From the IMG/VR virus record IMGVR_UViG_2690316028_000008: 7,242 nt of DNA; one strand, written 5' to 3'. Under the pieces are notes generated by a model, which worked only from the letters and a program-made list of their open reading frames with translations, made no database searches and had not been told where the DNA came from. The stretch is from a virus. Taxonomy: Duplodnaviria; Heunggongvirae; Uroviricota; Caudoviricetes. The position numbers and the translations under genes are program-made. Of this stretch, positions 1 through 7,242 are shown piece after piece (within the stretch, counting starts at the first letter, position 1; every line of letters begins with the position of its first letter).

Positions 1-156
1 CCTCTGACTGAGAGTTTACTCACTTAGCCGCGTGTCCACTATTGCTGGGTAAGATCACACATAGTAGCCTTTTAATTTGTATAAGTAGCAGCAGAGCCGA
101 AGTGCAAGGAAAACGTTGTGAGACGATGACGATATACAGAGCAATCATATATAATA

Positions 157-182
157 TGAAGAAAGAGCCGTGCTTGCGGCTC
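157..182 (-). terminator. Probable intrinsic terminator of the minus-strand cluster
   Basis: Read on the minus strand directly after the ORF1 stop codon (192..190): 6-bp GC-rich stem GAGCCG (182..177), 6-nt loop, stem CGGCUC (170..165), then U-rich tract UUUCUUCAU (164..156). Seen directly in sequence; stem is short. Confidence 0.45.
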
Positions 183-189
183 CAAAATG

Positions 190-1788: not shown

Positions 1789-2317
1789 GCTATCGACACA
1801 TTTATCGGTAGCATCATATTTACATAGTTTATGTTCAAAGAAGACACCAAATGCGTCTAAGATAGTTGTTTTACCAACATCATTACGACCAACTAATGCA
1901 GTTAGTGAGTTAATGTCAATGCTATGTTCTCCATGATAGCCACGAAAGTTCTATAAGATTAGTTTTTCAAGTTTCATAAAAATCTCCATTTTTAAAAATT
2001 AAAATTTTATTTTTTAAAACTTACGCATTCGAAAAAACATTTGATTTTGTTGTATTCGAAGTAACAAGAACAATTTATAAAATTAGTTCAATCGAAGTCT
2101 TGGGTAAGACGCTTTTTCTCTTTAACAAAACGGATAACTACGCATTGGACAATAGATACTTTAGGAAACACGCGGAAAAATTGTAACGTTTTGCTCATTC
2201 TAGACCTGATATTCCTTCAAATTAGCAAGTTCGAGAGATAAGGGGAAATTACGATAGTCTACCAGAATCATTTCACACCTGCTCTAAACAATATGCAGAA
2301 AATAATATATGTATTTA

Positions 2318-2980
2318 TTAGTAAAGTTCTCCAGTTCCCTGATCTACACGTTTATAGAAATCAGAAAAATTACATGGGTCAGATATAACTGAGTTTTTAT
2401 CACTACGAAAATCAAATTCTATTTTTTTTATAAGATCAATGGCTGGTATAGTCGAATTTAAAGGGATTTTTTTATAGTTTCTAATTCTGTGATATTCAAT
2501 TGAGTCTAAGTCTACTTCAATCGCTTTATTACCAAAATAATAAAAATGATCTGAAATCAACACGTTATTAGAGCTAGTATCTCGTTCAAGATTTGTCATG
2601 TTAAATGAACCATCAGCATTGCTATGATGAGAATCTTCTTGTATCCATTCATTGTTTTCATTTTGATGGTAGATATTATCGCCCAGAATTTGTACATGAC
2701 TACCATTTCTAGCAGGCTTTTTGAGAGAGAACCTGGTATCCTCCCAATAACCATTGAAACTAATTTTTTCTGAAACTTTCATTAATAGGATACATTTTTT
2801 TTTAGCTGATTTTAAATTGGCTCCACCAACTCCGAGTATCCAATCACCCACTTTAGCTGACTTTCTAATTCCAGGTTTGCATGTTGCCAAGGTACAACTT
2901 CCATGAAATGGATTAGGTGCAAAACCAAAGTCTCTCGTTATTGCATAAACATAAAGGTGTGAGTTGGGATCAATTAGCAT
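2318..2980 (-). CDS. Hypothetical protein (220 aa), unknown function
   Basis: Uninterrupted 220-codon ORF, same strand as neighbours. ATG start overlaps the stop of the upstream gene (ATGCTAA). SD-like AAGGTGG about 9 nt upstream of the ATG. N-terminal region contains YAITRDFGFAPNPFHGSCTLATCKPG (Cys-x4-Cys); I do not recognise a family. Confidence 0.6.
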   Translation of the reverse strand: MLIDPNSHLYVYAITRDFGFAPNPFHGSCTLATCKPGIRKSAKVGDWILGVGGANLKSAKKKCILLMKVSEKISFNGYWEDTRFSLKKPARNGSHVQILGDNIYHQNENNEWIQEDSHHSNADGSFNMTNLERDTSSNNVLISDHFYYFGNKAIEVDLDSIEYHRIRNYKKIPLNSTIPAIDLIKKIEFDFRSDKNSVISDPCNFSDFYKRVDQGTGELY

Positions 2981-3465
2981 ACGACATTTCCACCTTGAAC
3001 TTTATCACGATCCGTACCATCAGGTTTTTCAAAGGAAGTTTTACCTTCTAGTGCGTTGATAATGGCATCACTTCTCCAGGCCACTATAGAGGTTGCATAC
3101 TTTTCGAGATTCTCTGGTAGTTTTACATCGCCTTTTAACCCATTTTCATATACACCTATGATTGGTTTTCCAAGTTGATGAGCTACTTGAATTTCCCAGT
3201 TTACCCAAGGTCTAGTATGTGTCTCTTTCCCGATAACAACTATAACTTGACTAGCCCACCTCATTTTCATTCTAAGTAAACGTGCAATCGTTCGGTCACT
3301 AAGTTTTTTTTCCTCAACTCGTCGCTGGTTTTCAGGTTTCATTCTAATAGAACTATTGCGTAAATGATAACCTTTTGCTGCAGCTAAACGAGAAACTCCA
3401 TCAACACTCGCGTCGTCTTTATGATGATGGCTAACAAAAACATTTTTCTTAATTTCTTTAACCAT
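2974..3465 (-). CDS. TIR-like domain protein (ThsB-like / DUF1863-type)
   Basis: 163-aa ORF with ATG start and AAGGA SD 7 nt upstream. N-terminal VFVSHHHKDD and central VVIGKETHTRPWVNWEIQVAHQLGKPIIGVYEN match the characteristic pattern of bacterial TIR-like (Thoeris ThsB-type) domains, including the conserved Glu in WVxxEI. Recognised by eye. Confidence 0.7.
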   Translation of the reverse strand: MVKEIKKNVFVSHHHKDDASVDGVSRLAAAKGYHLRNSSIRMKPENQRRVEEKKLSDRTIARLLRMKMRWASQVIVVIGKETHTRPWVNWEIQVAHQLGKPIIGVYENGLKGDVKLPENLEKYATSIVAWRSDAIINALEGKTSFEKPDGTDRDKVQGGNVVC

Positions 3466-3486
3466 TTTTAAATCCTTTGTAATTTG

Positions 3487-4518
3487 CTAATTATAAAATA
3501 ATTCTATATTATTGCTTTGATAATGGTATTTTTGTTTAGGCCTTTTATTGTTAAATTTAGTTCGGCATCTTTTATCTATCTCGCATGCACCACTATTTTC
3601 CATGTCCATTAAGGTGTAAACTCTTTCTTCTTTAGGCAGGAAATGGAATATTTCATCCATGTTCCAATTTTCTCTATACTTTTCAGCGATGTTATTTTGG
3701 TTTATAGTGAACCAGAATAAACACTCTTCGCTATTCATTCCATCTCTATTAGAAAAAATCCAATTAATTCCTCTTTCACAACCAGGACCTGAAATAACAA
3801 AGTTCAATTCTGTAAACGGAAAGTTGGGTATGTATGTCAGATCTATGAAAATTTGATATGCTAGAAAATCCCCAATCCCTGAGAATGATTTTAAATGTTC
3901 AAAAACTTCGAACTGATTTCCTGATGATTTTACACCATTAACGATTTTATCTTGGTTATAATAAACAAATTTTATCATTCTAATTACCATATCATTTTCC
4001 GGTATTCCTTCTATATTTTTTAAGTATTTTCCGAAGTTAAACTTCGGACCTCCTAAAATATAGGCTGCACTAAAAAATACGTAGCCTGGTTTTTTTAATG
4101 ATATGTTTATTGTCTTTTCTCTGATCTTTTCATTGATGTCGCGAATAGTCATTTTTGTGAAATCAAAGGGCGCATCAAGTTCATTTAATGTATCGCTTTT
4201 ATTTATTACTCTAAACAAAAATGAATTGAGTATTTTATTTTCATAAGTTAATTTATTGTTGTTTGTTATATTTTTCAATAACCATTTGGTTTCTTTGTCC
4301 CATGTTCTTTTAGTATTTACAAATTTATAGTTTCTCAATATTTTGTCGTCTGTCCAATATGGCGGAAGGTTAAGTATCTCTTTCTTGTAATATATGGATG
4401 TCCTCTCTCGTTGATGATAAAACCATTCCTTGATAACAGCTTCATTCAAGGTAGGTTTAGCGGTTTTAATTTTCATTTCTCTGACATTACAAAAAAGTTG
4501 ATCGTTTTTACTGTTCAC
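3487..4518 (-). CDS. Hypothetical protein (343 aa), unknown function; contains a helix-hairpin-helix-like motif
   Basis: Long uninterrupted ORF co-directional with cluster. Start uncertain: GTG at 4518 overlaps the upstream gene by 11 nt; an alternative ATG at 4476 gives a 329-aa product. Motif FSGIGDFLAYQIFIDL resembles HhH nucleic-acid-binding hairpins. No P-loop. No family recognised with confidence. Confidence 0.6.
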   Translation of the reverse strand: MNSKNDQLFCNVREMKIKTAKPTLNEAVIKEWFYHQRERTSIYYKKEILNLPPYWTDDKILRNYKFVNTKRTWDKETKWLLKNITNNNKLTYENKILNSFLFRVINKSDTLNELDAPFDFTKMTIRDINEKIREKTINISLKKPGYVFFSAAYILGGPKFNFGKYLKNIEGIPENDMVIRMIKFVYYNQDKIVNGVKSSGNQFEVFEHLKSFSGIGDFLAYQIFIDLTYIPNFPFTELNFVISGPGCERGINWIFSNRDGMNSEECLFWFTINQNNIAEKYRENWNMDEIFHFLPKEERVYTLMDMENSGACEIDKRCRTKFNNKRPKQKYHYQSNNIELFYN

Positions 4519-5065
4519 TTAATAATACCTTTTCGAAGAAATGTTTAAAACTATCAATTCCGTTCACATTGTTGTCAAAATGATATTCTGATTTTGTTTT
4601 ATTCTCAGTGACATACTTGTCGATTTCGTATTTTTTATAATTATTATTTTCCCGTTCTATATGTACTATAGTGAACTGATTGTTCTTACACCATGCGAAT
4701 TCTTCATTTGATCTTATGTCAGTAATTATTATATTTTTATTCGTCCCTCCATTTTTTTCTAAAATTTTCAACTCTTCTGATAGCATTCTAATAAATATTT
4801 TTTCTTCAATTTTCCTTAGGCTGTCTAAGCTCAGCCATATATCTCTTGGTGAATGGCTGATAAAGTCGCCGGTAGGTAAGGTTATATTGAGTGGTAACAT
4901 TTTATTTTCAGGTGGGTAATCCTTTTCCATCCAAGGATAAATATAATTGGCCAATTTTTTGAGTTGATCGCTAAATGATAATCTAATAAATCCATAGTTG
5001 GATATCAGATAATTGGCAAGAAAGTCTTTTCCACTACCCGATATGCCCATGAATGCAATTTTCAT
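4508..5065 (-). CDS. P-loop nucleotide kinase, deoxynucleoside-monophosphate-kinase-like
   Basis: 185-aa ORF. N-terminus MKIAFMGISGSGKDFLANYL has a Walker A/P-loop at the extreme N-terminus, as in phage T4-type dNMP kinases (MKLIFLSGVKRSGKD...). ATG (5065..5063) overlaps the TGA stop of the upstream TS-like gene (ATGA), suggesting translational coupling. Confidence 0.7.
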   Translation of the reverse strand: MKIAFMGISGSGKDFLANYLISNYGFIRLSFSDQLKKLANYIYPWMEKDYPPENKMLPLNITLPTGDFISHSPRDIWLSLDSLRKIEEKIFIRMLSEELKILEKNGGTNKNIIITDIRSNEEFAWCKNNQFTIVHIERENNNYKKYEIDKYVTENKTKSEYHFDNNVNGIDSFKHFFEKVLLSEQ

Positions 5066-6147
5066 AGACGGTCCTTATTAGAATTATTAAAATAATTAGA
5101 AGTTACGCTTAGATTGAAATCATTGCTTAACTTAGTTTTTAACACTATTGGTTGATTGAATCTTTCCTGGAAAATATATGATAGAGCTGCTTCTGCATAT
5201 CCCCAAAGTAAATTCCTTTCAGTTTCTACAAAGTGTTTAATAAATATTTTTTTTAGATTTTCGGTTTCCATATCTATTGTGTCTATTTTATGTTCATTTT
5301 CTGTTATTATTCTTTCAAGGAATGAAACTATATCACAGAATAATGATTTTATATTTTGTAACGATGGAGGGAATGATATTTCATCATCGTTTATCAAATC
5401 TGTCATTTGTTCTTCTTTTCTTTCGTATATTTCATTGGCTTGTCCTACTCTATCATCATATATATGAAGATTTGTTACTGATTGATGTAAGTATCCCAGT
5501 TTAATCTCGCTATCAACTTCCCTCTGTAATATTGAAAGTACTATCTCTTGAAGTAAACTAAACTCGAAAAGATTTATATTGCTCACTCCAAATATTAGAT
5601 CGCCGCTTCTTTGAACTATTTTAATGTTTAAATTTTTGTCAGGAGTGATAAAGAAATGAATTAAGTTATTACAAGGAATATCGACACTATGTTCTATGTT
5701 GTATACTTTTATGAGGCTTTCATTCGTATCTCTGTCAGGCATGTATAAGCTAATGACTGCTCTTCTTGTAAATATTCCTTCTTTTTTGAATTGTTGCACG
5801 ACATTCTCAAGTTGCCCGTGAGCGTATAGTCTTTCCCCATAAGCTGCTCGCCAAATGACACCATCATCTGAGTATTTAGGCGCTCTTGGTAAAAAAAAAT
5901 TTAGATATGGTTTAATTCTGTTGTCGCCAGCAAAAACCCATATAGCTTCAGCAAATGTGGAAAATATATTATTTTTTCGACCCGCTAAACTTAAATGCCT
6001 TGATCTAGGGTTTCGTAAGATCATACTAACATCATAAATAGTTATAGCATCCCCATTCCTTGTCGAAATACGAACTCCTTCATTAAGCACTTTTTCTAGG
6101 AGTTTCATTATTACATCGTTAATAGTTTCTCCGTAAATGACGTGCAT
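5062..6147 (-). CDS. Thymidylate synthase superfamily enzyme (ThyA-like; possibly a dNMP C5-methylase or hydroxymethylase) with C-terminal extension
   Basis: Motif-by-motif correspondence with E. coli ThyA: KVLNEG (KVLDEG), EAIWVFAGDN (ELLWFLQGDT), TRRAVISLY (SRRIIVSAW), DIPCNN (APCH, catalytic Cys; codon at 5673..5671), QRSGDLIFGVSNINLFEFSLL ([20 protein letters not shown]), HIY (HLY). About 115 extra C-terminal residues with no TS counterpart. ATG at 6147 preferred over the upstream in-frame TTG at 6153 because SD GAGG lies 8 nt before the ATG. Confidence 0.8.
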   Translation of the reverse strand: MHVIYGETINDVIMKLLEKVLNEGVRISTRNGDAITIYDVSMILRNPRSRHLSLAGRKNNIFSTFAEAIWVFAGDNRIKPYLNFFLPRAPKYSDDGVIWRAAYGERLYAHGQLENVVQQFKKEGIFTRRAVISLYMPDRDTNESLIKVYNIEHSVDIPCNNLIHFFITPDKNLNIKIVQRSGDLIFGVSNINLFEFSLLQEIVLSILQREVDSEIKLGYLHQSVTNLHIYDDRVGQANEIYERKEEQMTDLINDDEISFPPSLQNIKSLFCDIVSFLERIITENEHKIDTIDMETENLKKIFIKHFVETERNLLWGYAEAALSYIFQERFNQPIVLKTKLSNDFNLSVTSNYFNNSNKDRL

Positions 6148-7057
6148 AAACAAAACCTCATGCTATAAAAACATCTTTTTAGTTGATATAGTTTATTGGG
6201 CCTAATCCAGAATTTGGTCCAGCTATGATCTGGACTAACCGGATAGCACGTTTCAATCTCTTGCCTCTAAGAACAGGCTCGAACGTGATAGCCAATTGGC
6301 TTCCCACTTAGCAAGTGAGACCTCGACCCACGCTACCGCCCTCAGTTGCATAGGCACTGCGTTTGTATGAACATTTACAAATGTTACTCATGTTATGGGT
6401 TTGGTCAATCTGGCAATAAGATAATTACGAAACTTTAGACTTATTACTTAAGTGGAGGTGGCGCGAGTCGCTAGCGAGTAAGACTGTCTCTTATATGTAC
6501 CAGAAGCACAACTGACGATGCTCCAAAATCATAGTCACCGCTGCGTAGCAAGCTGTGGCCTCTCGCTACTCCCGGGTGCCCCAGTTACAACGTTGTGGGT
6601 TGCATAAGAAATCTGTCCCGCCGGATTAGAGTGGTGGTGGATTACTGACTGTACTCTGCGTTCAATACAGAGACAGCCCGGAACAGGCAGTAATTGATGC
6701 CGGAACGAGACTATTTAAGAACAAACCGCCCCCGGTTAGCAGGATCGTCTCGGCCGGCAGGAAAGCATGCTAACACCTACATGAAGTCCCTGTCAGTGCA
6801 GGCCCCAGACTCAACACCACCAATCTACTTTTCACCACTGCGAAGTAAGGGGCGCTACGCCCGGTTATGCAGGGGCAGTTTTTCTCCTGTGCGCTTTTCG
6901 TTCCTCTATCGGCTTCCTGTTAATCGTTTCCCAACACAACCCGTCCCGCAAGGGTAAATGGCACGCATGCTGCGCCCTTGCAGGACAGAACGATGTCGGG
7001 AAAGCGAACCGTCAGGCGATACGAAGACGAAAATCACACACTGACGGAGAAAAAACG

Positions 7058-7237
7058 ATGACGATTTCCCTGCATACCACCCGGACAAGCGCCCCTAACA
7101 CCGCAGCGGCGACCAGCGTATCCCCGCTGGACCCGTCAGGCTCCTCAAAAACGAAATTTTCTAAAACCAGAACCGACATTTACCGTAAGCGTCGTCTGAG
7201 TACCGTCTGGTCCCGAATCCAGGATCCTGTAACTTAA
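7058..7237 (+). CDS. Hypothetical small protein (59 aa), Ser/Thr/Pro/Arg-rich
   Basis: ATG at 7058 preceded by GGAGA about 8 nt upstream; ORF runs to TAA at 7235-7237 (MTISLHTTRTSAPNTAAATSVSPLDPSGSSKTKFSKTRTDIYRKRRLSTVWSRIQDPVT). Just below the 60-aa ORF-track cutoff. No family recognised; could be a remnant. Confidence 0.3.
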   Translation: MTISLHTTRTSAPNTAAATSVSPLDPSGSSKTKFSKTRTDIYRKRRLSTVWSRIQDPVT

Positions 7238-7242
7238 GCACC

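Follow-up and report, generated by a model that had tools for sequence, protein, structure and literature searches.

An inherited amber codon interrupts a predicted Class 1 OLD-type nuclease gene among the cargo of an integrative conjugative element

What becomes of a predicted defence gene that keeps its ribosome-binding site, its start codon and an otherwise open reading frame and is interrupted by an in-frame amber codon (TAG) at its ninth position? Such a gene lies on the minus strand, at positions 190–1977, of the virus record IMGVR_UViG_2690316028_000008 (the whole stretch of 7,242 nucleotides that was analysed is referred to here as the window). A first-pass annotation, made from the sequence alone, had read it as an OLD-family (ATPase plus Toprim) gene broken by a single amber at codon 9 and had offered three possible causes, a very recent inactivation, a sequencing error, and expression dependent on amber suppression. 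Our analysis supports this reading of the gene and speaks against each of the three causes; the locus is very probably a genuine pseudogene of the ordinary nonsense type, inherited both vertically and horizontally and widespread together with the integrative conjugative element (ICE) that carries it.

Sequence reading confirmed the beginning of the frame. The Shine-Dalgarno sequence GGAG (1984–1987), which is identical in the intact alleles, is followed after 6 bases by ATG (1975–1977), the start common to the 595-aa orthologues P0001–P0005, then by codons 2–8 (KLEKLIL) and by the TAG (1951–1953). Past the TAG, 586 codons are open to the TAA at 190–192, in line with the earlier estimate of roughly 590 codons free of stops and frameshifts; the window allele comprises 596 codons in all (595 plus the TAA), with the TAG as the sole internal stop and with no frameshift. 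The upstream extension is no chance frame, because the eight residues that precede the stop are identical in the intact orthologues and the match to the Pfam family AAA_15 begins at residue 1, so that the N-terminal region, on which the first-pass annotation had left room for doubt, does belong to the protein family. A single base change, T to A, reopens the frame by restoring AAG (Lys). The Walker A motif, or P-loop (G30-RNDV-G35-K36-T37, 1867–1890), lies between the TAG and the first downstream start, as the first-pass annotation had it, except that its beginning had been put one codon too early, at 1893, which is trivial; this motif would no longer be translated. No in-frame ATG, GTG or TTG occurs between the TAG and codon 64, a GTG (1786–1788) that is the first canonical in-frame start past the TAG; it lies 3' of the P-loop and is preceded by no Shine-Dalgarno-like sequence, so that a product starting there, the 532-aa ORF given by the ORF listing, would indeed lack the P-loop. 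The ATG and GTG directly past the TAG belong to the +1 frame, in which they would yield a peptide of only about 10 codons. Directly 3' of the stop codon, a terminator-like GC-rich hairpin is followed by a T-run (164–183, minus strand), and the same site is present in the intact-allele locus L003.

With codon 9 repaired to Lys, the protein matches AAA_15 over residues 1–371 (E=6e-66), and among the thousands of relatives recovered by homology search, the top ones are proteins of 595 aa from Klebsiella, E. coli, Erwinia, Serratia, Vibrio and others. Within an alignment of 40 homologues (A1), the invariant residues include G30, N32, D33, G35, and K36 of Walker A; E332, E333, P334, and E335 of the Walker B-type motif (I331-E-E-P-E335, 973–987); and T365 and H366 of the H-loop (H366, 880–882). 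Invariance extends through the C-terminal part, to E422, G423, and D426 of the Toprim motif VCVEGPND (E422, 712–714), to G460 and G461, to D485 and D487 of the DxD motif (D485-R-D487, 517–525), and to E517 and E519. All the Walker B, H-loop, and Toprim E/DxD motifs reported downstream of the amber by the first-pass annotation were thus located. A Pfam search with the C-terminal 185 residues (413–595) matched no model; PADLOC profiles for GajA align across this part of the protein (residues 487–590 and, for one profile, 283–590) and reach the region of E422. When the intact allele was modelled with AlphaFold (AF2; mean pLDDT 84.6), the best Foldseek match was the T. scotoductus OLD protein (6p74, E=5.5e-17, 636 columns), followed by GajA and then by the retron-Eco8 OLD; whole-chain TM-scores were low (0.35–0.40).

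[quoted passage not shown] At 595 aa, it falls within the 500–600 aa range of Class 1, and no UvrD/PcrA-like helicase, retron reverse transcriptase or GajB gene is adjacent in the contexts examined. Judging from motifs and the structural model, the window gene is an ATPase-Toprim OLD-type nuclease gene of Class 1, with nuclease activity as the predicted function. The neighbours are unrelated in each context examined, that is, the ICE island, Vibrio cassette arrays, a Methylophaga chromosome, and locus L017, where the gene lies beside a restriction-modification system and a relaxase. A conserved partner gene was sought among the upstream neighbours in Vibrio, Methylophaga and the window (Nmad2), and these share no similarity.

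The intergenic region upstream of the gene (1978–2317, 340 bp) contains no ORF and is mostly conserved, in alignments, when the gene sits in another genomic context. About 250 nt upstream of the OLD start (window 1978–2260 compared with about 2650–3000 of L017) are recognisably conserved in a wholly different neighbourhood, which suggests that the OLD cassette moves together with a long leader or regulatory region of its own. A site that reads TTTATA-16-TAGAAT upstream of the intact alleles reads TCGAAT in the window; we considered and rejected a promoter knockout on the amber lineage, given that the outgroup L017 also has C at this position and L016 differs altogether. Promoter matches are no more frequent than in shuffled sequence, and the Rfam scan gave no match in the upstream region.

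Twelve complete E. coli chromosomes match the window at 99.9%. In these chromosomes, the OLD gene lies between two TIR-containing operons, beside the ArdC, MobC, VirD4, and VirB genes and next to cobUST-ldtA, and the locus is the right-end cargo region of an ICE. According to Lam et al. 2018 (PMC6202445), the ICEKp types differ from one another in the cargo cluster at their right end, and from this report and the layout of the locus, we infer that the element belongs to the ICEKp/HPI family. A search of PLSDB found the segment on no plasmid, and literature searches found no description of this island or of the pseudogene.

On one side of the OLD gene, a five-gene operon (window 2318–6153, minus strand) encodes a thymidylate-synthase-like protein (PF00303), a dNMP-kinase-like protein, a protein with the 5-hmdU DNA kinase helical domain HMUDK_hel (PF18723), a ThsB-type TIR protein, and an Nmad2 protein (PF18753). 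Enzymes typical of phage thymidine hypermodification are here joined with a TIR protein on a bacterial ICE; the TIR protein alone matches any PADLOC model, and the operon may represent an undescribed nucleotide-centred conflict system. The second operon lies on the other side, just past the left end of the window in the intact islands (L001 7986–11889; L002 10033–13936), and encodes a hypothetical protein, two ThsB-type TIR proteins, a 397-aa TIR_2 protein, and an LD_cluster2 protein; the genome from which the window comes has an IS junction in place of this side. Both extremities of the window (1–56 and 7185–7242) are ends of multi-copy mobile elements: the left one, an IS3-type end, recurs in 4271 E. 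coli genomes, and the right one, a 58-bp element end that interrupts the ArdC gene, recurs in 525 genomes and also on plasmids. The insertions that bracket the 7.1-kb segment were not seen in the 12 complete E. coli carriers. A stretch of about 900 bp (window 6180–7058) that separates the thymidylate-synthase-like gene from ArdC is GC-rich (47–54%) and contains only short ORFs (42–87 aa), none of them annotated; it holds a disproportionate share of the intergenic differences between the window and L003 (13 of 20, among 50 differences in all).

A sister ICE that is 92.6% identical (L006 5544–6428, E. coli 22AR0118) carries a 294-aa restriction endonuclease and an IS30 fragment in the OLD slot. 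The presence of this endonuclease in the same slot suggests that cassettes are exchanged at the OLD position, between the two TIR operons, and, along with the unrelated neighbours across contexts, points to a stand-alone OLD cassette of the Class 1 type.

The amber codon recurs far beyond the window. The gene is carried by 12 of 5426 complete E. coli genomes, from sources that include human, dog, frog, seawater, and wastewater, and all 12 share one sequence, at 100% identity, over the 201 bp that surround the TAG; the same TAG is found in the Enterobacteriaceae genome contigs L014, L018, and L020 and in two metagenome contigs. The dead allele occurs in both Klebsiella pneumoniae and E. coli, and the RefSeq PGAP annotation of NZ_LR536430 already lists it as a pseudogene ('missing N-terminus'). 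Intact 595-aa alleles (98–99% identity) occupy the same island, and the two versions of this island are 99.3% identical over 7.1 kb. The comparison of orthologues at codon 9 that the first-pass annotation had called for gives a clear answer: a sense codon, AAG (Lys), occupies the position in the intact alleles L002–L005 and L017, and AGG in L016, so that the TAG derives from AAG by an A-to-T transversion. Across the 40 homologues, position 9 is mostly K, E, R or Q, with Q in 4 of the 40.

Polarisation with the outgroups L016 and L017 assigns seven changes to the amber branch: K9*, L43F (CTT to TTT, 1849–1851), G117S (GGC to AGC, 1627–1629), K431R (AAG to AGG, 685–687), Y472D in the Toprim domain (TAC to GAC, 562–564), K534N (AAA to AAC, 376–378), and A568G (GCA to GGA, 274–276). 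Four of the six missense changes fall at positions that are at least 80% conserved (L43, 95%; G117, 82%; K431, 80%; Y472, invariant in the 40 homologues), and the other two, at the variable positions 534 and 568. The N-terminally truncated protein calls with the window-type C-terminus all show F43/S117/R431/D472/N534/G568 at the marker positions that they cover, and the close 595-aa alleles (at least 95% identical) all show L/G/K/Y/K/A; more distant alleles vary at 534 and 568 only. The amber is in complete linkage with the six missense changes.

All seven changes on the amber branch are nonsynonymous and none is synonymous, compared with a long-term ratio of 23:60 between the intact allele and its 95% relative L016 (Fisher p=2.7e-4). 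Likewise, within the gene the window differs from the intact allele L003 by 10 changes, all of them nonsynonymous, compared with 13 synonymous and 7 nonsynonymous differences in the five neighbouring genes (Fisher p=0.001). We do not use the synonymous deficit relative to the neighbours (0 versus 13) as an argument, given that TIR2 and ThsB_b of the island also have only 0–1 synonymous differences. Nor is the nonsynonymous excess wholly specific to the amber branch, because the intact alleles L002, L003, and L005 also differ from one another by nonsynonymous changes only (0 synonymous, 3–4 nonsynonymous), at the variable surface-type positions 144, 481, 592, and 593. This pattern among the intact alleles hints at diversifying selection or very recent divergence, and part of the excess may come from the short time-scale or from the diversifying selection typical of defence genes.

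Further changes have accumulated after the amber. Within the amber lineage, T586P, A154V, and H246N are accompanied by one synonymous change (3 nonsynonymous to 1 synonymous). In L018 (1661–3447), a 1-bp deletion at nucleotide 1213 of the gene (codon 405) splits it into ORFs of 407 and 148 aa, the latter fragment (P0122) being indexed in 318 blocks of the collection, and in L020 (594–3447), also of the amber lineage, an IS (DDE_Tnp_1) is inserted near nucleotide 1301. The copy in Atlantibacter sp. RC6 (L021 4932–5414) has AAG at codon 9 but carries an independent 23-bp deletion between TTGGT direct repeats, which removes K36–T38 of Walker A and shifts the frame. The locus thus combines what is expected of a pseudogene, a lesion that is inherited and is set off against intact orthologues, and relaxed constraint. 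The linked missense changes, the divergence of about 0.7% from the intact-allele island, and the second lesions in sub-lineages do not fit the very recent inactivation that had been proposed; judging from these sequence comparisons, the gene appears to have been dead for some time and to be still decaying.

The history that best accounts for these observations would begin with a 595-aa stand-alone Class 1 OLD-type nuclease gene, a single-gene cassette between the two TIR-rich operons of the ICE cargo. In one ICE lineage, a single A-to-T transversion would have turned codon 9 from AAG into TAG, and ribosomes starting from the intact Shine-Dalgarno sequence and ATG would stop after eight residues. 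Because of this stop and because no canonical restart precedes the P-loop, no ATPase-competent protein should be made, and the defence function would be lost with it. The gene, freed from selection, would then have drifted, while the dead allele travelled with its element through both Klebsiella pneumoniae and E. coli. To account for the data, no more is needed than neutral decay of a dispensable accessory gene.

The best surviving alternative concerns only the reason for the rise and spread of the pseudogene and leaves its status untouched. Under this scenario, which we consider unlikely, the active nuclease would harm the host or the ICE through its cost or toxicity, its knockout would have been positively selected, and the dead allele would have outcompeted the intact one. 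A speculative route would be attack by the nuclease on the conjugative or rolling-circle DNA intermediates of the element itself; some backing comes from V. cholerae, where a Class 1 OLD acts against rolling-circle replication of a phage, blocking its switch to this mode (PMC12392090). The N-terminal ATPase was knocked out independently in two ways, by K9* and by the Atlantibacter deletion in Walker A, but two independent lesions would also be expected under neutral decay of an unneeded accessory gene. Fragments of the amber allele are found in far more blocks (P0121, 621; P0122, 318; P0008, 169) than the intact allele (P0135, 69; P0003, 17), counts that are, however, confounded by clonality among the clinical K. 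pneumoniae sampled and by the success of the ICE with which the allele hitch-hikes. The ratio of nonsynonymous to synonymous changes also fits neutrality, with P=0.15 for the observation of no synonymous change among seven at a nonsynonymous fraction of 0.76. That N-terminal ATPase knockouts are repeatedly selected and that the disarmed element spreads better seems, on balance, improbable, and still less likely is a role of the amber as an attenuator that holds a toxic nuclease at the read-through level.

An inherited pseudogene of this kind would give no functional product. The opposing view, that the gene still functions through low-level expression, either by read-through of UAG-A (for example, with Gln inserted) or by re-initiation at the ATT codons 20 or 22, appears to us highly improbable. 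UAG followed by A is a relatively leaky context, and trace read-through is possible; some homologues have Q at position 9, the Shine-Dalgarno sequence, the ATG, and the downstream frame are intact in the window allele, and GenBank protein calls do start at ATT. Nevertheless, an open frame of 586 codons with all the catalytic motifs is no evidence of function, because only 4.5% of random substitutions create a stop, and the probability that the frame stays open after seven substitutions is 0.72. Apparently nothing selects for the frame, given that sub-lineages tolerate the codon-405 frameshift and the IS insertion, and the substitutions on the amber branch hit an invariant Toprim residue and near-invariant ATPase residues. 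In the AF2 model, residues 2–21 form the first two beta-strands, packed against the P-loop, and a product started at ATT-20 or ATT-22 is predicted to lack these strands of the ATPase core. Class 1 OLD proteins that have been characterised need Walker A for defence, and the V. cholerae protein (Vc OLD) cannot protect against phage without its Walker A lysine (PMC12392090).

A read-through or recoded stop would be expected to leave the frame under purifying selection; what we find instead is the 7:0 ratio against 23:60, the second lesions, and the sense codon in orthologues. The tRNA and Rfam scans of the window detected nothing, hence no tRNA gene and no local suppressor tRNA. An exact glnV(CUA) of the supE44 type is present in 155 of 5424 E. 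coli records taken as a whole, and the 25 glnV(CUA) records listed are mostly recognisable laboratory strains (for example, C600, DH5alpha, DH1, and J53). Given the continued decay, the expression dependent on amber suppression that the first-pass annotation had envisaged is very unlikely. As for a sequencing or assembly error in one record, the single-base difference from the intact alleles is its classic signature, yet the identical TAG in 12 independently sequenced complete genomes, in several draft genomes, and in two metagenome contigs, always with the same six linked missense changes, excludes it for practical purposes.

The amber has left its mark on public records, in which the dead allele appears as a 576-aa or 574-aa 'ATP-binding protein' or 'AAA family ATPase' that begins at the ATT codons 20 or 22 (window 1911–1920); such calls occur on 169 contigs for P0008 and on 28 for P0013, and gene callers also give ORFs of 527 and 512 aa. 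The ATT-start calls are most likely annotation artefacts of the amber codon, and censuses of defence systems that count them would overestimate the number of functional OLD nucleases in K. pneumoniae and E. coli. The finding is otherwise ordinary, the pseudogene status having already been flagged by PGAP; its practical value lies in the correction of mis-annotated protein calls and in pointing out the intact allele (e.g., P0003 and P0135), a member of an uncharacterised Class 1 OLD subfamily, which is testable for phage defence. More generally, the locus exemplifies a defence gene of ICE cargo that was lost by point mutation and then carried across genera.

Among the known systems with related domains, Gabija GajA (a Class 4 OLD) shares the ATPase-Toprim architecture, and many PADLOC GajA profiles and the second-best fold matches point to it; Gabija was rejected because no gene for GajB, a UvrD-like helicase, flanks the OLD gene in any locus read. 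The best PADLOC match is with the AriA model of PARIS (residues 1–371, E=2.9e-56), but this 373-position model covers the same residues as AAA_15, so that the match goes no further than the generic ATPase domain. AriA lacks a fused Toprim domain and acts with a separate AriB (DUF4435) gene, whereas the window protein has no AriB; with no DUF4435 match in the protein and no such neighbour, PARIS was rejected as well.

[quoted passage not shown] Ts OLD is the best PDB match by fold and by sequence, yet it is only about 16% identical to the window protein. The key residues of Vc OLD are numbered K48, D313, and D468/D470, compared with K36, E332/E333, and D485/D487 here, and this difference in motif numbering suggests that the window protein may belong to a different subfamily. 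Unlike these proteins, the window copy, with the K9 amber and six missense changes, is dead. In this respect, it resembles the nonsense pseudogenes of accessory and defence islands in Enterobacteriaceae, with which it shares an early single stop, a retained Shine-Dalgarno sequence and start codon, and later missense changes, frameshift, and IS insertion; the window allele is unusual among them only in its wide spread, with its ICE, across two genera.
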